From a virus (lineage: Duplodnaviria; Heunggongvirae; Uroviricota; Caudoviricetes), in the IMG/VR virus record IMGVR_UViG_3300026224_000017: 9,744 nt of DNA; one strand, written 5' to 3'. The notes under the pieces are model-generated. The model was given only the letters and a program-made list of their open reading frames with translations. It was not told the DNA's origin and searched no databases. Within the stretch, counting starts at the first letter, position 1, and each line of letters opens with the position of its first letter. A program made the position numbers and the translations under genes. Positions 888 through 9,744 of this stretch are shown one piece after another.

Positions 888-1510
888 TTTTGAATCACCG
901 TTGTTGCATAGGAATAAATAAAAGGGAGTTTTACATATTTCTGGTCAATGGCATCTTTCAGAAAATAGCCTATACCATCGCCATACTCTGGTATCTGAAT
1001 AGAAAAAACGCTGTCCGATACTGTCACACTCACATCAAAAGTGTGCTGCAACGGCGGGTCTATTCCGTTTTTTCCATGAATGAACCGCGCCACACGTCGC
1101 TTTAACCAGTCAATGCAGAAATGCGAACCGTCAGCCTTATAAAAATTCCACGTTAATATTCGTTTGAAATAATCATCAGGTACATACGATGCCTGCCCCG
1201 GAACATAATTCCGCATTGCCGCATAAGGGATTGTATTGTATTCAATGGTATCGTATGCGCCGCGTGCAATAGCCTCCTCGGAAACCTGTAGTAAAGGCCT
1301 TTCAACGCCATAAATCCCGAGTGCAATCCAGTCCAGCAATTGCCCGGTTATTGATTCCGATGTCCAGCATGGCAATGCCAGATTGTTGAGTGAATCGAGG
1401 TATTCCTGAGCAATTTCATTGTATGCATCAAAGAACGCAACAACATTCGGATCATCTCTGTACTGCACAAATGGATAAGCAGGGAGAATTTTCTCAGTCA
1501 GATATTGCAT
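884..1510 (-). CDS. Baseplate wedge/tail protein, P2 gpI / Mu gp48-like (DUF2313-type), ~208 aa
   Basis: The six-frame ORF is 884-1618, but its first ATG would overlap the upstream gene by 125 nt. The internal ATG at 1510 (MQYLTEKILPAYPF...) has an AGGT about 8 nt upstream and overlaps the J-like stop by only 17 nt. Size, N-terminal pattern and position after J fit the I/gp48 family. Its stop overlaps the fiber start. Confidence 0.55.
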   Translation of the reverse strand: MQYLTEKILPAYPFVQYRDDPNVVAFFDAYNEIAQEYLDSLNNLALPCWTSESITGQLLDWIALGIYGVERPLLQVSEEAIARGAYDTIEYNTIPYAAMRNYVPGQASYVPDDYFKRILTWNFYKADGSHFCIDWLKRRVARFIHGKNGIDPPLQHTFDVSVTVSDSVFSIQIPEYGDGIGYFLKDAIDQKYVKLPFIYSYATTVIQK

Positions 1511-2720
1511 ACTTGTTGACCTGAACCTGTGATGCCACCGTTGAAAAATAGGAATAGGTATCGCCATAAACCAGGCTTGTGTCTTTCGCCGGAAGAACAA
1601 TATGGCCGTTAATACCAATGCTCACACTGATTGTTGAGATCAACGTCGCATCAACCAGCAACCTGACGGAACTGGTAAAAATATCCTGGATACGCAGAAG
1701 ATTTATCGGGTGTCCGACTTCAATTGAATTGATGTAATCAGCAACGTTTTGCTGCACAGCCATAGCAATACCCGCCGGATCAACATAATCATCAGACACC
1801 GTGTTCCAGGTGATTAGCACCATGACGTTTTGTGATGACGGGATAACGAACGGCACCTGATAAACGTCCGGTGAAACGGTTATTGAAACCGTGCGTTTTT
1901 CCACTGCCGCACCGGATGGATTGCTAACATCGTTGGTCAGTTTCGAAATATCCGGTACAGATTTGTAAATCGCATAAGCCACATCATACGGATCACCGCC
2001 ACCAACAACCGCAACCCATTTCCCCAGCGACGACTGCCGGAAAGAAATCAGGTTTTCTCGCACACCGCTTACTGATTTGAGCATCGCTTTAAAGCAATCC
2101 GGTGTTCCCTGCACACCAAACATGCCGGACTCCATAACTTCGGCGCGATATGATGCCCATGTCTGCGCCTCCTGACCGGGCATACCTGCGGTAAGGTTCG
2201 TGCATTTTACAGGCTGGTCTTTGGGTACTGATGTAATGACCTGCGTTACAGTCCCTTCCGGTACAGCCCATGAGCCTGACGTTGTGGCCACACAGTAGAC
2301 TGGCTCAGTCTGCCCGCTTTCCGGTACCACCGTATCGCGGGAAACCGCATACTGGTAGTTACCATCTCCAACCACAAATCCTTTAGGGATACCAAACCCC
2401 GGCAACGCCTCAAACACCACGTATACCGCCGTATTTGTACTTAATCCCTTCTGTGCTCCATAAATGTTTCCGAGTTGCATCAGTAACGGAATATTTGCGC
2501 CGTATGGGCTTACGGAGTTAATAAGGTCCACCCGCGCCTGGTCTATTAATGCCAGCGCCCCGACTGCCGTGCTGGCAAGGTCTGTAATAAGTCCCGCAGG
2601 AAGGTTGGCTGTATATCCAGGTACTTTTTCAGCAACTCTGGTGATAAGATTTGCGAGCAAATCATTGGGTGGCGTAGGCTGCGCACCCGCACTGGTCATA
2701 GTAATTGGTATTTCTGACAT
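1494..2720 (-). CDS. Baseplate J-like protein (P2 gpJ / Mu gp47 / T4 gp6 family), 408 aa
   Basis: 408-aa ORF. The N-terminal third (NDLLANLITRVAEKVPGY ... ANIPLLMQLGNIYGAQKG ... PGFGIPKGFVVGDG) follows the conserved pattern of baseplate J family proteins. It is followed by an I-like gene and a fiber gene. No Shine-Dalgarno is visible upstream of the ATG at 2720. Confidence 0.65.
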   Translation of the reverse strand: MSEIPITMTSAGAQPTPPNDLLANLITRVAEKVPGYTANLPAGLITDLASTAVGALALIDQARVDLINSVSPYGANIPLLMQLGNIYGAQKGLSTNTAVYVVFEALPGFGIPKGFVVGDGNYQYAVSRDTVVPESGQTEPVYCVATTSGSWAVPEGTVTQVITSVPKDQPVKCTNLTAGMPGQEAQTWASYRAEVMESGMFGVQGTPDCFKAMLKSVSGVRENLISFRQSSLGKWVAVVGGGDPYDVAYAIYKSVPDISKLTNDVSNPSGAAVEKRTVSITVSPDVYQVPFVIPSSQNVMVLITWNTVSDDYVDPAGIAMAVQQNVADYINSIEVGHPINLLRIQDIFTSSVRLLVDATLISTISVSIGINGHIVLPAKDTSLVYGDTYSYFSTVASQVQVNKYAISD

Positions 2721-2757
2721 ATTTATTTATCACTTGAATACATTATAAGGAGATATA

Positions 2758-3234
2758 ATGCGGTTCTATTTCAACAAAAAAGGTCTTTCTGGTATTTCTG
2801 TATCAAGCGGAAGGAGTAGTGGTGGCTGTGGAACATTAATTGGAGTTGTCTTTATACTTTATTTAATTGGCCATTTTTCATCACCTTCCGATGAAGATAT
2901 TAAAAATGAATCATCATCTTATAAGACAGCAGTCGTTAAAAGCGACAAAATAATTTCCGAAATCTGCGATCAGTTTAGCACTGATGATTCCGCAAAAATA
3001 TTTTTTAATTCAAATCTAAACAAACATTGGTATAAAACAAAAGTTAAAGTAAATTCACTATCAGATCAAAGATTATCTGCGATTGATTTCAAAAATCCAG
3101 AATTAAAGTATGAAATAAGAATGTCTGATTCAAGACCATTAAGAGTAGGGGATATTATTTCCGTTGAATTTGTACCTACTGAATTCAGTAAGTATTCATG
3201 CGAAATCAGTGGCACAATAGGTAAGTACAAGTAA
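2758..3234 (+). CDS. Hypothetical membrane-anchored protein (single N-terminal transmembrane helix, ~120-aa C-terminal domain), 158 aa
   Basis: Strong RBS AAGGAG 5 nt before the ATG. A basic N-terminus is followed by a hydrophobic helix (TLIGVVFILYLIGHF) and then a K/S/D-rich domain. The gene is very AT-rich (sampled stretches about 20-35 percent GC) and ends 4 nt before an intrinsic terminator. No recognisable family by eye. Confidence 0.6.
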   Translation: MRFYFNKKGLSGISVSSGRSSGGCGTLIGVVFILYLIGHFSSPSDEDIKNESSSYKTAVVKSDKIISEICDQFSTDDSAKIFFNSNLNKHWYKTKVKVNSLSDQRLSAIDFKNPELKYEIRMSDSRPLRVGDIISVEFVPTEFSKYSCEISGTIGKYK

Positions 3235-3238
3235 CCTC

Positions 3239-3272
3239 AAAAAAAACAGCCCGCTGAACGCGGGCTGTTTTT
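3239..3272. terminator. Bidirectional rho-independent terminator shared by convergent genes 2758-3234 and 3271-3660
   Basis: A-run 3239-3246, 8-bp GC-rich stem cagcccgc (3247-3254) / gcgggctg (3260-3267), 5-nt loop, T-run 3268-3272. The A-run/T-run flanks make it functional in both orientations. Confidence 0.75.
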
Positions 3273-3660
3273 AATATACGCCACGAATAAGATCTTGGGT
3301 AAAAACATCACATCCTTCGCTACCTAATTGCAGTCTTTTCTTAAAGTACTCAATAATACCGTCATTATGAACGCCATTTTTGGAAATTTTTAACCACGTA
3401 TTGCTCCATTCTATACTTTGGAGTTTTGTTAAAGCCGCTTTTTCATTTCCTTCACTAACCAAGCGACACGATTCTGATAGTTGATCAGTTACAATCATTT
3501 CATTTCTCATATGCTGAAGCAATTGTCGCTGTTCTTCGCTTAAAGTAACATCTTGATTAGTAATGAGTCTTTCTGATTTTTCAATTGGCGTACCAATCGC
3601 ACACCAAGAGACGAATAAAATTGTAAATAAAGGGAGTGTAATTTTTATACTGACCGACAT
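3271..3660 (-). CDS. Hypothetical secreted/periplasmic protein with N-terminal signal sequence and two cysteines in the mature part, 129 aa
   Basis: ATG at 3660 is preceded by GAGG with a 5-nt spacer; the GTG at 3666 suggested by the ORF track sits inside that Shine-Dalgarno. The N-terminus MSVSIKITLPLFTILFVSWCAIG has n, h and c regions of a Sec signal peptide. AT-rich (about 33 percent GC in a sample). The stop overlaps the terminator T-run. Confidence 0.6.
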   Translation of the reverse strand: MSVSIKITLPLFTILFVSWCAIGTPIEKSERLITNQDVTLSEEQRQLLQHMRNEMIVTDQLSESCRLVSEGNEKAALTKLQSIEWSNTWLKISKNGVHNDGIIEYFKKRLQLGSEGCDVFTQDLIRGVY

Positions 3661-3689
3661 AATCACCTCATTATCAAATGTTCATGCGG

Positions 3690-3717
3690 ATTTTATCAAC
3701 GGTTTCCCTCTATTCAA
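3690..3717 (-). promoter_or_regulatory. Candidate sigma70 promoter for gene 3271-3660
   Basis: On the minus strand: -35 TTGAAT (3717-3712), 16-bp spacer, -10 TAAAAT (3695-3690). Predicted start near 3683, about 23 nt upstream of the ATG. Found by eye only. Confidence 0.35.
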
Positions 3718-3724
3718 ATCAGAC

Positions 3725-3752
3725 TTTACATCCATGAGCTATTGAGTATGAT
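3725..3752 (+). promoter_or_regulatory. Candidate sigma70 promoter for the antirepressor-like gene, back to back with the minus-strand promoter
   Basis: -35 TTTACA (3725-3730), 16-bp spacer, -10 TATGAT (3747-3752). The two -35 elements are 8 bp apart, a typical divergent promoter layout. Found by eye only. Confidence 0.35.
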
Positions 3753-3979
3753 TATGCGCATGAGGCGTCGAAACCTCTTTCACGCGGCCTAGACCAACCC
3801 CGTCAGTGTTGGATTTTTTATGCCTACAATTCAGTGATGGCACAATGTGCGGTCACATCCCCGATCAATGTCGGGAGGGCGACGAATACAACACCCGAAA
3901 GGGAAATAAGTCCGCGGTTTCGTGAAGCCGTTTCGAACCTCCTGGCACCACAATTTCGAAAAAATTTCACGAGGTTTCT

Positions 3980-4537
3980 ATGACCAGCCAATTAATTCCC
4001 GTATTCAACGGCATTGTTTCAAACGAAACTACCCTTCTCTGCAACGCTCGCGATCTGCACACCTTTCTCGAAGTAGGTAAACGCTTTGCTACTTGGATCA
4101 CCGAGCGAATCGGCGAGTATGAATTCATAGAAAATCAGGACTACATAGCTATTTCCCAAAAACGGGAAATAGGTCACGGACGAGGGAAAAAGGACTACCA
4201 CCTCACCCTGGACACCGCCAAAGAACTGGCAATGGTCGAGCGCAACGAAAAAGGCCGCCAGATCCGCCGATACTTCATCGAGTGCGAGAAGAAGCTGCGC
4301 GAGGATACCACCAGCACACAATCCCCTCTGAATGTTGACATCATCATGCGCGTCAGAAACGGCTCGGTTACCCACATTGAGCACCACAAATCAGGCTCAG
4401 TTATAACCACAGAATGGGCAATTCACTTACTACGCAAAAGTGGATGGATTGTCATGCCACGCGATGAACTTCTTAACACGCCACTGGCCCAACTGATGCC
4501 CGAAAATTTGACTCAAACCGGAACCTGCGTCCGGTAA
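3980..4537 (+). CDS. Phage antirepressor-like protein (AntA/AntB-type N-terminal domain), 185 aa
   Basis: GAGG 5 nt before the ATG. The N-terminus (LIPVFNG ... ARDLHTFLEVGKRFATWITERIGEYEFIENQDY) and central segment (LTLDTAKELAMVERNEKGRQIRRYFIECEKKL) match the pattern I associate with AntA/AntB antirepressor proteins. The C-terminal ~70 aa are not recognisable. Confidence 0.6.
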   Translation: MTSQLIPVFNGIVSNETTLLCNARDLHTFLEVGKRFATWITERIGEYEFIENQDYIAISQKREIGHGRGKKDYHLTLDTAKELAMVERNEKGRQIRRYFIECEKKLREDTTSTQSPLNVDIIMRVRNGSVTHIEHHKSGSVITTEWAIHLLRKSGWIVMPRDELLNTPLAQLMPENLTQTGTCVR

Positions 4538-4860
4538 CTGGTCCCATTAAAAAACACAACATCGATGTTATAGGTGGGGTTCTCTGCCCCATCTACCTTT
4601 GAAATTGCCAGCGATGCAAAATACCCGGCAAACTGTTGCTGAACCATGTTCACATAGTAGTCCGGGTAAATTTGCTGCACGATGCACTGCTGCGCTGGAA
4701 TGCCGTAATTCGCGTAAAACGGCGACTCCCCCAACCCCAGCTTTAACGTCTGAATGAGCGTCGTCAGCCAGCCGTAGGAGAAATCACCGCTGGCGTCAGA
4801 TTCTACAGCAACCCATTTTTTGTTGCCGTTCGCGTCGGTGACGCGGCCCCATGTTCTCAT
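4513..4860 (-). CDS. Baseplate wedge protein, gp25 / P2 gpW-like, 115 aa
   Basis: Contains GESPFYANYG, which fits the G-x-x-P-F-x-x-x-[FY]-G core of gp25/W proteins (compare T4 gp25 GSRPFDPEFG). Size matches P2 gpW (115 aa). It lies between the spike and J genes. Its ATG is 3 nt after the stop of the preceding small ORF. Confidence 0.5.
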   Translation of the reverse strand: MRTWGRVTDANGNKKWVAVESDASGDFSYGWLTTLIQTLKLGLGESPFYANYGIPAQQCIVQQIYPDYYVNMVQQQFAGYFASLAISKVDGAENPTYNIDVVFFNGTSYRTQVPV

Positions 4861-4863
4861 GCG

Positions 4864-5028
4864 TCAACCTTTCAAGTAAATTAGGGTACCGGTAGCCAGA
4901 GCGGTACAAATGATCCACGCTACTGGAGTCAGAATATGCCGAATACCCTGACATACTGCGATTATTCTCGCAGCCTTATCAGCTCCTTGTGGGGTTGTCT
5001 CAGCCTTAAGAATCAGTTCGCTATCCAT
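4864..5028 (-). CDS. Hypothetical small protein with C-terminal transmembrane helix, 54 aa
   Basis: Translation verified by hand: MDSELILKAETTPQGADKAARIIAVCQGIRHILTPVAWIICTALATGTLIYLKG. Its ATG overlaps the stop of the upstream small ORF (ATGGATAG), and its TGA is 3 nt before the W-like ATG. Not in the ORF track, presumably because it is under the length cutoff. Confidence 0.35.
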   Translation of the reverse strand: MDSELILKAETTPQGADKAARIIAVCQGIRHILTPVAWIICTALATGTLIYLKG

Positions 5029-5188
5029 TTAGAACCTTTATGATCTCTGCGATTCCCGGAAGCGATTTAGCAACTGCAAACCCTCCGATAACTATAAGAA
5101 CTGCATAAAACATTCTTCTCAGAACCGGACTTCTTTCGAGCAATTTTAGAGCTTCCACAATCCAGTCTCCTCCGCTAAAATTAATCAC
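5021..5188 (-). CDS. Hypothetical small membrane peptide (single hydrophobic helix), 55 aa from GTG or 30 aa from the internal ATG
   Basis: GTG at 5188 is preceded by GGAGG (5199-5195) with a 6-nt spacer. Translation: VINFSGGDWIVEALKLLERSPVLRRMFYAVLIVIGGFAVAKSLPGIAEIIKVLNG. It lies downstream of the hairpin at 5244-5275 and is coupled to the next ORF. Confidence 0.35.
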   Translation of the reverse strand: MINFSGGDWIVEALKLLERSPVLRRMFYAVLIVIGGFAVAKSLPGIAEIIKVLNG

Positions 5189-5243
5189 GGAAGACCTCCA
5201 AACATACGTAATTATCCCTTGCCTTATTCAAGGTCAGAAACAG

Positions 5244-5275
5244 AAAGCCCCGACTGTTTGCCCAGTCGGGGCTTT
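5244..5275. terminator. Strong GC-rich stem-loop (terminator- or attenuator-like) just downstream of the spike gene
   Basis: 13-bp perfect inverted repeat aaagccccgactg (5244-5256) / cagtcggggcttt (5263-5275) with a 6-nt loop. Flanking sequence is moderately T-rich on both strands. It sits about 38 nt after the stop of the 5314-6027 gene. Confidence 0.5.
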
Positions 5276-5313
5276 CGCTTTATGGATAGAATTTAAAGTG
5301 AAATGAACCGGTA

Positions 5314-6027
5314 TTAACCCGGATTTGGTTTCTTTGACGTGATCGTGCTGTTGCCGCTTTGAACCCCAGTCACATCGTGGCTGTGACCGCTGGCGCTGAC
5401 ACCTTTTATCATCGCGTCGTTTTGCACAGTAAGCGGGCCAATCAGCGAAGCGGTTGTATCCTTCATCTGGGCTTTGTCCTGGACGATCGGTCCGTTGAGG
5501 TGAATTTTCCCGTTCAGGAAAATATCTTCGGCCTCGAGGTAAACAGCTTTCGACTTTTGCCTGATTTCTTCCGGTGCCACCGTTACCGAGCTACTGCCGT
5601 CCTCTGTTTTGAGGATCGCGCCATCCGGACCGTACAAAACGATCTTTTGCGGATCTTCGTCGGACCAGTCCTTGTTTGCCAGTGGCACGAAAAACAGTGG
5701 AGTGAGCGACATCGAGTAAGAGAGCGTCGCCATACCGGTTCCCAATCCGGACACACCGCGCAGGGATACATCAGCGGCAATTGTTACTCCTCGATCGCCC
5801 GGCTGTATCGGGTAACGAATATACGGGAATGTGGCGACAGGGATTGTTATCTGCGGAAAGTTGATCCCCTCCGGCAGCATATCAAACTGAACTGTCACTA
5901 TCTGCCCGCTGACACCGACAACATGGCAGGGCAATTCACGACCTTTAAGCTCGGCTTGCTGGTTACCAGAACTGGTCATCATCTCCGACAGCGTTCGGAG
6001 AAACGGTAATTTTTGAGCGTTTGACAT
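5314..6027 (-). CDS. Baseplate spike protein, P2 gpV / Mu gp45-like, 237 aa
   Basis: Size and position match. The C-terminal region has a His-containing apex-like motif (GHSHDVTGVQSG) and a Gly/Ser/Thr-rich beta-type sequence, as in gpV-type spikes. Its start overlaps the stop of the upstream hub-position gene. Confidence 0.6.
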   Translation of the reverse strand: MSNAQKLPFLRTLSEMMTSSGNQQAELKGRELPCHVVGVSGQIVTVQFDMLPEGINFPQITIPVATFPYIRYPIQPGDRGVTIAADVSLRGVSGLGTGMATLSYSMSLTPLFFVPLANKDWSDEDPQKIVLYGPDGAILKTEDGSSSVTVAPEEIRQKSKAVYLEAEDIFLNGKIHLNGPIVQDKAQMKDTTASLIGPLTVQNDAMIKGVSASGHSHDVTGVQSGNSTITSKKPNPG

Positions 6028-7034
6028 TACACCCTCGCCCAGTTCTCAGCATATGCCTCAAATACCGTCACCCAGGCATCGCCATCGGCTGTCAGATACG
6101 AACCAATGTGTCTGACCGATTTCACAAGAAATTTCCCGGTGAACGTGGTCGAATTTTTTGCGATAACGCTGGGTGCCGTTGTATTAGCCATCACAATCGA
6201 CGCAGCACCTGAATATAGCCCCTCCGGCAGTTTAACCACATCACCACATCTGATATCGCCCCTCATAGGGCATTTGAAGCTGACGGTAAACGGCGCTATC
6301 CATGTCGGCTGCCCGACCAGTTCATGGGCATGAATTGTTTTTGGCTCACCCCACTTTGCCGATGCGTTATCGTAGATTCGTATTCTGTCGGAAAGAATAC
6401 TGATGGCGATTCCGCTGTATTTCTCATCGCGCATCATTGCAATTGAAGCACTACGGAGGACCATAGCCAGCGAACCAATATCTTCGTAGGTTCCATTCCA
6501 CGGTTCCGGCAAAACGAGGCTGTCGCTGACAGTACAATCGATCAACTTATTCGGAAATGCCTTTTGCAACGCACGGGAGATTACATCACCAACCTTTTCC
6601 CCTTTAAGCCCCTCCCCCTCGATAGAGAACGGTTTACCATCATCTGTTTTGCGTACGGTTGGATTTATTACCAGGTTTAAGGTCTGGTTCGTGCCGATCC
6701 AGTTGGCATAGGCCAGATAAATTTCGCCATAAATAACCTCACCCTGTTGCTGTGGATTTGCCAAAGGCAATCCCTCAACAAAGCCCGCTTTCATACGGAC
6801 CAGACACCCCTGCAAACTCACGCTTTGCTTCAGCATGTCGATAGGCAAACCGTATATTGTGAGCATCGTTCCTGAATTCACTACATCAAGACCCGCTACC
6901 TCCACATCAAATTCAACATGTAGCCCACACCCGGGGGTTTTACTGGTATCAAAAGGCCCGATAGGTTTACCGTTGCAATCCACTGGCGGCTTGCCTGTTT
7001 TAGGATTGATGATTTCCAGTCGGTAATAGCGCAT
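6027..7034 (-). CDS. Tail protein in the baseplate hub position (gpD-like by gene order), 335 aa
   Basis: Translationally coupled to both neighbours (TAATG overlap at 7034, 1-nt overlap at 6027). It sits immediately upstream of the spike gene, as hub proteins do. The assignment is positional; I cannot confirm family membership by eye. Confidence 0.45.
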   Translation of the reverse strand: MRYYRLEIINPKTGKPPVDCNGKPIGPFDTSKTPGCGLHVEFDVEVAGLDVVNSGTMLTIYGLPIDMLKQSVSLQGCLVRMKAGFVEGLPLANPQQQGEVIYGEIYLAYANWIGTNQTLNLVINPTVRKTDDGKPFSIEGEGLKGEKVGDVISRALQKAFPNKLIDCTVSDSLVLPEPWNGTYEDIGSLAMVLRSASIAMMRDEKYSGIAISILSDRIRIYDNASAKWGEPKTIHAHELVGQPTWIAPFTVSFKCPMRGDIRCGDVVKLPEGLYSGAASIVMANTTAPSVIAKNSTTFTGKFLVKSVRHIGSYLTADGDAWVTVFEAYAENWARV

Positions 7035-7968: not shown

Positions 7969-9441
7969 TTACCCCGGTATTTGTTGCGTTCCGGCGAGTT
8001 GTGCCAGTATGTCGGAACCCGGCGATTGTCGCACCTGAAGCTCAATTATTGCGCGGGCATTTTTGCCAGCACCCTGAAGATTATCTCTGGCATTTCTTAG
8101 CTGATTCATAATACCAGGGTGTTGATCCAGGGCTCCCTGAATCTGAGGCAATAATTTAATTAAATATTTTACAGTCTCCATTCTCAAACTTAGATTTCCA
8201 TCTCTATCAATACGACCTCCGTTATATGCCGTAAGCATTTTTGCCACATCGCCTTTATAACGCCGATTCAGATCATTTAAAAAGCGGCCAGCCGCAAGAG
8301 TGGATTTATTTGGGTCATAAACATCATCACCCACCAGACCATACTGTTTTGCGGTGCTATCCCAGAATTGCCACAACCCCTTAGCGAATCTACCTTTTTC
8401 ATCAGGAGTTCCTCTTGCCAGAGGATTCCACGAAGATTCAACTTCTGCGATAGCTGACATCATATTTTTAGGAAGTCGATAAGTATTATTGGCTTGCTCT
8501 ACAAAGTTCTGAATATTTCTCTTTAAATCATTAGGCATACGGTAATTTTTATATACATCATCCTGTTTATAAAACTCACCCGTATACTGATTTGTCATCG
8601 GGTTTGCTCCCGGCAACGCACCACCGAGATATTTATTTCCAAATGCCGCAAGAACTGGATCTGCCTGTTCAGCACCAACTCCGGTTCCGGGGAGATATTT
8701 ATCTTCCCCACCGATCCATTTGATAGCTGACCATATTGCTTTTGCAATCCGGCTCACCGCCAGAGAAAAATCGTCAAGATCATTTTTAAATTGTTCGCTA
8801 TTCAGCCACTTACCAAGTTTCTCCAGCCCTTCGCCAGCCTCAGCGAGAATTTTCTGAAAATTTCCACCATTCAGAAAACCTTCAATATTGGATGTCAGCC
8901 CATCAGATGCACCTGTGATTAGTGGGTTATATCTGGCGAGAGCTGCATACCAGGAATTTGATATTCTGTTTCCATTTACCATCAGGTTACTCACCGTATC
9001 CTGATAACCTGACTGCATAGCTGGCGTGAGGTAAGCACCGAGCAACCTAGTATTTGATGCAAATTTCTCGTTCAGTTGGGGGATCTTGTCCAGATTCGCT
9101 TCCACCTGGTTAGTTGTCGCGACATCAACAAATCCAAGCCCTTGTCCGTTGAGAATCCCCTGAGTAAGTCCTGAACCTTTATATTGCTTAACGAGAGATG
9201 CAAGCGCGCTCATAAGTTTGGGCAGATTCTTTGCTGCACCATCTCGAGGATCAATTCCAAGACTGACCAGACCAGCATAGTTTGGATCATTTGGATTTTT
9301 CTGTGCGTTCGCCAGATGCTGAACCAGTTCTTCTGTGCCAGAAAAATATGGCGAATAGGTGGCACGTGCGGCCTGCATCTGTGCGGTTTCCATACCCAGC
9401 CCCTGAGCCACGCTGTATTGCGCTGCAACCTTGCTCGCCAT
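7969..9441 (-). CDS. Tail-associated protein with lytic transglycosylase (SLT) domain, probably tape measure or tail lysin; at least 490 aa
   Basis: Clear SLT catalytic region AIAEVESSWNP ... GLWQFWDSTA ... TAYNGG (approximately 8200-8480), verified by back-translation. The first ATG is at 9441, but the same frame stays open upstream to 9651 (about 70 more codons) with no canonical start codon. Confidence 0.7.
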   Translation of the reverse strand: MASKVAAQYSVAQGLGMETAQMQAARATYSPYFSGTEELVQHLANAQKNPNDPNYAGLVSLGIDPRDGAAKNLPKLMSALASLVKQYKGSGLTQGILNGQGLGFVDVATTNQVEANLDKIPQLNEKFASNTRLLGAYLTPAMQSGYQDTVSNLMVNGNRISNSWYAALARYNPLITGASDGLTSNIEGFLNGGNFQKILAEAGEGLEKLGKWLNSEQFKNDLDDFSLAVSRIAKAIWSAIKWIGGEDKYLPGTGVGAEQADPVLAAFGNKYLGGALPGANPMTNQYTGEFYKQDDVYKNYRMPNDLKRNIQNFVEQANNTYRLPKNMMSAIAEVESSWNPLARGTPDEKGRFAKGLWQFWDSTAKQYGLVGDDVYDPNKSTLAAGRFLNDLNRRYKGDVAKMLTAYNGGRIDRDGNLSLRMETVKYLIKLLPQIQGALDQHPGIMNQLRNARDNLQGAGKNARAIIELQVRQSPGSDILAQLAGTQQIPG

Positions 9442-9666
9442 ATATCCGTACCCGAAAGCACCGACCGAACCAAGCGCCGCAATTTTGCTCCCCCAGGATA
9501 CAGTCGTTTTAAACAGCGTTTTCAGTCGTGAATTGGTCGTTTTAAGCGTTGAATTGATCTGCTTGTAAGTTTTCAGCGTCCCCTGAGCGTTTTTACCCAG
9601 ACTACTGAGATACTTATCAAATGAACCGCCCCGGGTTTCCTGGAGAGTGTTTTATCTGTGAACTCA

Positions 9667-9744
9667 GGCTGCCAGATCAGTATTTCCGATGGAAGCATAA
9701 TAAGCTTTTTCTGCTTCTGCCGGAGGAATATGGCCCAGCCTTTC
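9667..9744 (-). CDS. C-terminal end of an upstream tail-module gene (partial; start lies beyond the right edge)
   Basis: Open frame from the window edge ending ...AEKAYYASIGNTDLAA at TGA (9666-9664), followed in the same frame by a second stop TAA (9654-9652). Identity unknown; tape measure N-part or tail chaperone are the candidates. Confidence 0.35.

Follow-up and report, generated by a model that had tools for sequence, protein, structure and literature searches.

Our analysis of a 9,744-nt stretch of viral DNA (the window) suggests that the antirepressor-like gene ant, which lies reversed among the baseplate genes, is probably part of a self-contained, mobile, RNA-gated module resembling immI of phage P1 and carried in a hotspot between two baseplate genes of a Rac-SA53-type lambdoid E. 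coli prophage. The 220-nt leader of ant contains an sRNA-Xcc1 family RNA, preceded by a predicted promoter and by a short leader that ends at a terminator-like site. This c4-type leader RNA, the most prominent control feature that the sequence shows, was missed by an earlier note on this DNA. What is new here is the proposed c4-type sRNA-Xcc1 gate, with its co-varying target and a putative decoy copy before ant; the position of the gene had already been annotated and is ordinary phage mosaicism, and the value of the locus lies in the control element that precedes the gene.

The ant gene has 185 codons and a GAGG Shine-Dalgarno sequence 5 nt upstream of its ATG. Its description as antirepressor-like in the earlier note is borne out by profile searches, in which the AntA domain (Pfam PF08346) scores 96.2 bits over residues 22-89, well above its cut-off of 27 (E 1.8e-27), and PHROG anti-repressor families match the product with a best E of 6.9e-67. 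Homologues are common and carry the name antA/AntB antirepressor family protein. Across 85% of its length, the window shares 95.6% identity with phage Rac-SA53 (KU052037), and the Rac-SA53 record contains “ant” and rac59 annotated with the identical overlap; the same pair of ant and baseplate gene is already annotated in RefSeq E. coli genomes. The arrangement is ordinary, previously annotated and far beyond chance. The features of the region are collected in Table 1.

Table 1. Features of the window in and around the ant cassette, ordered by position (nt).
Feature	Position	Strand	Description
Baseplate J	1494-2720	-	Pfam Baseplate_J and PHROG baseplate wedge; next core late gene past the island
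Variable cargo island	2721-4512		Separates the 115-aa gene from baseplate J; contains the ant cassette and two AT-rich genes
orf158	2758-3234	+	N-terminal hydrophobic segment; AT-rich
Strong bidirectional intrinsic terminator	3239-3274		CAGCCCGC/GCGGGCTG flanked by A-run and T-run; between convergent orf158 and orf131
orf131	3271-3666	-	Signal-peptide-like start; AT-rich
Sigma-70 promoter-like site	3725-3752	+	TTTACA-16-TATGAT, 10/12 matches; predicted transcript start ~3759-3761
5' leader	3762-3784	+	Upstream copy of both target segments of the ant ribosome-binding site
5' hairpin GAGG/CCTC	3762-3765 with 3774-3777	+	Loop holds a1, UCGAAA, 3768-3773
b1	3778-3784	+	UUUCACG; directly 3' of the GAGG/CCTC hairpin
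Terminator-like attenuator	3794-3819	+	Stem CCAAC/GTTGG, then T6; read from the sequence
Conserved hairpin	3834-3856	+	Between attenuator and small RNA
sRNA-Xcc1 RNA (RF02221)	3870-3954	+	69.7 bits against a gathering score of 53; E 2e-11
Target a'	3955-3961	+	UUCGAAA; complementary to junction strand 3931-3937
Target b'	3965-3974	+	UUUCACGAGG; complementary to loop 3918-3927 (10 bp, including Shine-Dalgarno GAGG 3971-3974)
ant	3980-4537	+	N-terminal AntA domain, long helix, C-terminal beta-hairpin/helix domain (~118-175), disordered tail
Convergent overlap of 3' ends, ant and 115-aa gene	4513-4537		25 nt
115-aa baseplate gene (phrog_7986)	4513-4860	-	W/gp25-like by position
Two small ORFs	4864-5028, 5021-5188	-	Hydrophobic segments
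V-like spike	5314-6027	-	
Baseplate hub	6027-7034	-	
Two unknown genes	Between hub and tape measure	-	
SLT tape measure	7969-9441	-	

A scan of the window with all Rfam models gave sRNA-Xcc1 as the sole match above a curated threshold. The match covers model positions 1-87 of 87, and the RNA ends 25 nt 5' of the ant ATG. It forms a three-way junction of a 9-bp closing stem, two hairpins and a single-stranded junction. The first hairpin contains an invariant internal loop and a GAAA tetraloop, and the second carries the variable loop; the junction strand reads UUUCGAA (the model junction is a 6-nt single strand), and an ACCA tail (3947-3950) follows the closing stem. The core AAUACAA.ACCCG.AAGGGGAA is invariant, and the window allele is without the extra hairpin that most alleles carry 3' of the ACCA tail. 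A pattern search of viral contigs yielded 120 extra loci, corresponding to 113 distinct RNA instances, most of them with NCC tails, and to 80 distinct cassettes with a callable downstream open reading frame. Since the structure was only partly recovered when RNAalifold was run on a MAFFT alignment, base pairs were counted on the stated structure instead. Among 62 diverse sequences, the helices showed 134 double changes compared with 47 in shuffles (none of 500 shuffles was as high), and the unshifted register scored best.

We predict with high confidence that this RNA and the ribosome-binding site of ant pair with each other, the variable loop with the segment that includes the Shine-Dalgarno sequence and the junction strand with the segment just before it. 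In an alignment of 17 distinct leaders from related loci, the RNA backbone is near invariant, and there are at least six loops, each of which matches the sequence immediately 5' of and overlapping the ant Shine-Dalgarno of its own locus. The pairs of loop and ant start region are UUUCGUGAA and UUUCACGAGG in the window, CUUUGUUUGUG and AAACAAACAGAGG in L057, UACUUGUAG and AUACAAGAGG in L001, UAUCUUUUGGG and GCCAAAAGAGG in L043, UAUCUUUUUGCA and GCAAAAAGAGG in L067, and CCUCACUGAG and AUCAGUGAGG in L064. Across the 80 cassettes, the predicted duplex between the 3' half of the RNA and the start region has an average energy of -21.3 kcal/mol for partners from the same locus and of -13.5 kcal/mol for mixed partners (p 2e-33), and the predicted duplexes are two-helical, with one helix from the loop and one from the junction strand. 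When the loop was considered alone, 57 of the 76 combinations, which carry 62 distinct loops, had their longest or joint-longest helix with the start region of the same locus (p 2e-25). The proteins encoded downstream in the 80 cassettes contain AntA (17), P22_AR_C (16), Bro-N (13), KilA-N (12), Rha (10), P22_AR_N (9) and ORF6N (8) domains; nearly all of these genes are thus of antirepressor, Bro, KilA or Rha type.

This covariation fits action in trans and purely intramolecular masking of the ribosome-binding site equally. The leader RNA could thus be a purely cis-acting translational switch, perhaps one that responds to temperature, a ligand or a protein, with neither a processed trans RNA nor an immunity function. 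RNA and target are on one transcript and only 11-50 nt apart, the invariant core resembles a binding pocket, and the Shine-Dalgarno region is sequestered when the entire leader is folded to its minimum free energy (z -3.25). We nevertheless regard such a switch as unlikely. The founding sRNA-Xcc1, which is integron-encoded in Xanthomonas campestris, is seen on Northern blots as a discrete species of 88 nt (PMC2996969), and the NCC(A) tail 3' of the closing stem is common to c4, whose precursor is described as an RNase P substrate (Hartmann 1995, as cited in PMC4919922). Moreover, the presence of a further target copy upstream would be understandable if it served as a decoy or competitor, and many specificity alleles on an otherwise identical backbone are the pattern of selection for specificity in trans, as between P1 and P7. 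The tail motif and the 88-nt species of the founding member therefore suggest, with moderate confidence, that the window RNA is released by RNase P and acts in trans.

The upstream part of the leader repeats both target segments, one in the loop of a 5' hairpin and one directly behind it. This copy co-varies with the downstream target: their longest common substring averages 7.15 for the same locus and 5.62 for mixed loci (p 2e-28). In 31 distinct leaders, a promoter-like -35/-10 pair of varying sequence ends 6-9 nt ahead of the GAGG hairpin, and this recurrent position supports the promoter-like site of the window. Downstream of the copy, the attenuator is conserved, with compensatory stem changes in diverse and distant leaders, and it would end a short leader RNA of ~60 nt. 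The hairpin that follows it is likewise compensatory between alleles (for example, GTGATGGCAC..GTGCGGTCAC versus GTGGTTGCAT..GTGCAACCAC). Three other candidate elements were rejected: a promoter immediately 5' of the small RNA (TACAAT, ~3825), which lacks both a -35 and conservation across alleles; a mini-ORF of 10 codons at 3760, whose ATG is absent in the Rac-SA53 and Stx alleles; and LexA control, as no CTGT-N8-ACAG site with up to 2 mismatches occurs in 3332-4207 and the total in the window is not above chance. The ant promoter differs in this respect from those of the LexA-controlled antirepressors GfoA of Gifsy, Tum of 186 and AntC of N15, and the search for input signals at this promoter, LexA box included, revealed no obvious one.

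Taken as an RNA-gated module, the cassette would work as follows. The sigma-70 promoter would start a transcript whose first ~60 nt carry the a1/b1 copy of the ant translation-initiation sequence. This leader would end at the weak terminator, and read-through would continue into the ~85-nt sRNA-Xcc1 RNA and then into ant. The variable loop and the junction strand would pair with the two adjacent segments over the ant Shine-Dalgarno and block translation of Ant. The small RNA would probably be excised and act in cis as well as in trans on incoming cassettes of the same allele, like c4 of P1 and P7. The short upstream RNA could be a decoy that titrates the small RNA and thereby releases Ant, which would then inactivate the repressor of its own or a co-resident prophage, or otherwise derepress phage genes. 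Action of the cassette on other prophages, which the earlier note had also raised for the antirepressor, is possible.

The module can be compared with isrK-orf45-anrP of Gifsy-1 in Salmonella, which also combines a short terminated leader RNA with a read-through, antirepressor-like mRNA whose translation depends on an RNA-RNA interaction (PMC4825925). There, short IsrK activates translation of the read-through anrP mRNA (PMC4825925), and by analogy the short leader RNA of the window might act as an activator, in line with the decoy role proposed above. The attenuator of the window is comparable to the IsrK terminator (PMC4825925), and the Rfam isrK model, which covers the a1/b1 hairpins and terminator of P1, has its counterpart in positions 3762-3819. 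Unlike Gifsy-1, the window is without an orf45-type coupling ORF, and the isrK model itself remains unmatched.

The closest architectural parallel is immI of P1 and P7. In the P1 record, the order is promoter P1c4, putative a1/b1, the 77-nt c4 RNA, and the a2/b2 targets before icd, ant1 and ant2; the window likewise has a promoter, a1/b1, an RNA, targets over the ribosome-binding site of the next ORF, and an antirepressor gene. The window RNA has the topology of the Rfam C4 consensus. Both are three-way junctions in which a closing stem encloses one hairpin capped by a tetraloop, one hairpin with a variable loop (12 nt in C4) and a single-stranded junction (7 nt in C4), and both end in an NCC tail (ACC in C4). 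The two recognition elements of the P1/P7 system, facing two co-varying targets at the ribosome-binding site, are found in the window, as is a counterpart of its upstream a1/b1 duplicate, and the variation of loop and target alleles among sRNA-Xcc1 cassettes resembles that between P1 and P7. The Rfam models C4 (RF01695), c4-a1b1 and isrK had no match in 3700-4000 at E up to 10, while P1 itself scores 68.8 bits with C4, so that the likeness to P1 is architectural and not a detectable homology. There are further differences from P1. The core of the window RNA is the sRNA-Xcc1 scaffold, unlike that of P1 c4. No icd-like leader ORF is present in the 25 nt between RNA and ant ATG, and it is the ant Shine-Dalgarno itself that is targeted, whereas the targets of P1 precede icd. 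Finally, the cassette lies within a late operon on the opposite strand, unlike P1 immI.

An antirepressor module among late genes and restrained by an antisense RNA is also present in phage P22, where immI (mnt-arc-ant, with the sar antisense RNA) lies inside the late region; P22 uses the protein repressors Mnt and Arc and a true cis-antisense RNA. For sar, the Rfam scan of the window gave only a sub-threshold match, at an unrelated hairpin (5218-5279; 24 bits against 43).

The cassette is mobile. The segment 3762-4322, made up of the leader and ~115 codons from the start of ant, shares 77-87% identity with int-adjacent cassettes of short-tailed Stx phages, indicating that the ant cassette moves between unrelated phage backbones. 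The cassettes of phi24B Ant and its relatives (such as antB1 of P13771) share the same small RNA, and their leader and first ~115 residues are 68-84% identical to those of the window. They differ in the remainder: the phi24B-type Ant is int-adjacent and has a P22_AR_C C-terminus, while that of the window is a different, unclassified module of ~60 aa. The AntA part and the long helix of Ant are highly conserved. Residues ~118-175 are modelled by AlphaFold as a beta-hairpin and helices with pLDDT 65-74 (G155 is invariant and W156 near-invariant), and residues 178-185 form a low-confidence tail with pLDDT <50. The last ~15 residues are confined to copies whose end extends into the baseplate gene; shorter homologues do not have them. 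The earlier note had pointed to ~70 C-terminal residues beyond the recognisable domain, and this stands: the C-terminal domain matched no Pfam family, a PDB sequence search gave nothing below E 0.7, and a Foldseek search of the model against the PDB gave no similar solved structure, with nothing below E 0.1. The last 70 residues are 96-100% conserved among hotspot copies, while identity of the entire protein falls to 82%, which indicates recombination at the domain boundary.

Ant has no similarity to Ant1 of P1 (BLASTP E 0.63), which carries a KilAC domain where Ant of the window has AntA, and it is without P22_AR_C, the domain through which phi24B Ant resembles P22 Ant (PMC3064807); antirepressor activity hence rests on the family name. 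For this domain combination we consider the activity plausible, with moderate confidence. Rac-SA53 encodes a 153-aa HTH repressor that lacks a peptidase domain, HTH-only repressors of this kind are the type inactivated by antirepressors (PMC3121763, PMC10448788), and phi24B Ant promotes efficient induction when present (PMC3064807).

Ant could instead be a toxic or DNA-binding regulator of the Bro/KilA/AntA class, with the cassette functioning as a type I toxin-antitoxin or abortive-infection module and the RNA as its antidote. According to Iyer et al. (2002), the function of the N-terminal domains AntA, Bro-N, KilA-N, ORF6N and Rha is reportedly uncertain but probably lies in DNA binding. To this can be added the missing similarity of Ant to the functional domains of the P1 and P22 antirepressors, as well as the observation that the same RNA family has been noted, with no mechanism given, 5' of the toxin gene symE in Xanthomonas integron cassettes (PMC12444791) and 5' of an ORF6N protein gene in APSE phages (PMC7313666). 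We find this reading doubtful: models of known defence systems gave no match for Ant, orf131, orf158 or the two small ORFs, the inducing phi24B protein is the nearest studied relative and shares both the N-terminal part and the leader, and AnrP, encoded 3' of IsrK, derepresses a prophage operon (PMC4825925).

In the literature searched, sRNA-Xcc1 appears as virulence-linked, with distant targets, or by position only (PMC2996969, PMC12444791, PMC7313666, PMC12189769), and none of these accounts gives it a c4-like role in which the target co-varies and lies at the ribosome-binding site downstream; Rfam places the family in no clan. Regarded for 15 years as a virulence-linked, trans-acting sRNA, sRNA-Xcc1 appears here as a regulator of the gene directly downstream, and its specificity code, loop against ribosome-binding site, can be read in many phages of Proteobacteria. 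We tentatively propose, as a serious possibility, that sRNA-Xcc1 RNAs form a second widespread class of c4-type phage immunity RNAs. They would be excised from leaders and use an allele-specific loop to block a downstream antirepressor, Bro, KilA, Rha or toxin gene, with alleles defining cross-immunity groups and the a1/b1 RNA serving as an anti-sRNA. If this is true, the targets of hundreds of annotated sRNA-Xcc1 copies become predictable, the logic of P1 immI and IsrK extends to a new RNA scaffold, and loop alleles set which co-resident or incoming prophages can trigger each other. The cassette offers a simple test of how prophages with non-cleavable repressors gate their antirepressors and talk together. 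Tandem copies also occur. Stx phage P13771 (L004) has two sRNA-Xcc1-type RNAs (4570-4658 and 5106-5194) that precede a 93-aa ORF and antB1, each with its own matching loop and ribosome-binding site, and five tandem copies have been tabulated in Xylella, together with adjacent sRNA-Xcc1, isrK and C4 matches (PMC12189769).

The tail module that surrounds ant is encoded on the minus strand and includes an I-like gene beyond baseplate J. As the earlier note had described, ant is on the opposite strand, convergent with its baseplate neighbours, and its end overlaps the W-like gene; the geometry of the 25-nt overlap is identical in Rac-SA53 and ~30 loci. The note had further taken this placement to be unusual for an antirepressor gene. 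This part is not supported: the site serves as a hotspot for cargo, Gifsy prophages are an established case of antirepressor genes located away from the immunity region (PMC3121763), and immI of P1 directly adjoins the LPsit late tail operon in the P1 record. We collected 96 loci through the 115-aa protein and located the V, W-like, Ant and J genes in each. The distance from the stop of the 115-aa gene to the start of J is only 23-64 nt, an empty site, in 10 distinct loci, mostly of more distant relatives. In the remaining loci, the gap is 300-3135 nt and filled with varied cargo. Some carry signal-peptide or lipoprotein-like genes, which may point either way; elsewhere there is a gene for a 391-aa protein, a pair of genes, another antirepressor-like gene, or ant. 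About half of the near-identical tail modules, and every distant one, have no ant gene, and six loci hold only a 5'-truncated ant without leader. About 25 near-identical E. coli-type modules, whose J is 99-100% identical to that of the window, have a 1350-nt insert and no ant. The site between the 115-aa gene and J is a cargo hotspot, and ant is one optional occupant of it, not part of the design of the tail operon.

The convergence of ant and the baseplate gene most likely follows incidentally from the site and manner of the cassette's insertion. The alternative put forward in the earlier note, that the antisense overlap is functional and that interference between convergent ant and late tail transcription couples tail synthesis to the lysogenic or lytic state, draws on the retention of convergence and overlap in ~30 loci and on the transcription expected here. 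No intrinsic terminator was predicted from the ant stop to a hairpin at 5243-5276, so that ant transcripts could run antisense through the 115-aa gene. In the other direction, late transcripts heading for J cross the whole of ant and the small RNA in antisense, and convergent transcription must occur whenever the ant and tail units are both active. We nevertheless consider a designed coupling very unlikely. The gene is patchy in its distribution, truncated in the six loci and replaced at the same site by other cargo in either orientation; the overlap encodes the low-confidence tail that shorter homologues are missing; and the same cassette works in Stx phages that have no such neighbours. The island moreover has a strong bidirectional terminator of its own, with which late expression needs a terminator-resistant polymerase anyway, and this argues against designed coupling; Rac-SA53 has a Q gene. 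This terminator, which stands in the path of late transcription to baseplate J, had been missed by a simple terminator scan.

With 29-36% GC, orf131 and orf158 differ from ant and the flanks (46-52%). Neither has a Pfam, PHROG or PADLOC match, and homologues of orf131 that are 29-40% identical occupy the same hotspot in L078 and L088. The interval 4861-5313, from the V-like spike to the 115-aa gene, is also an insertion, the V and 115-aa genes being adjacent in distant relatives, and the hairpin at 5243-5276, which has 14 bp and is GC-rich, lies inside it. At the right end of the window, positions 9597-9744 are the end of an IS3-family element. The SLT tape measure resembles its Rac-SA53 counterpart over residues 108-657 only; the similarity breaks off at 9621, past which there are in-frame stops. 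The gene is apparently interrupted, and the prophage may therefore be tail-defective. An IMG/VR contig that matches the window (L018) ends just inside its right end.

Several hotspot loci show other states of the site. Decayed copies of ant, with the first 25-53 codons and the leader gone, are present in L017, L025, L026, L028, L054 (~6327-6809) and L065. In the group L031-L056 (~1350-nt gap), which comprises the ~25 near-identical E. coli modules, a single 391-aa gene in the orientation of the late operon replaces ant. In the hotspot gap of L072 (6346-8027), the same type of leader (83% identical) precedes a different protein of 282 aa, whose C-terminus resembles the C-terminal domain of the window Ant (…TGWVVE…), and the gene of a secreted protein follows.
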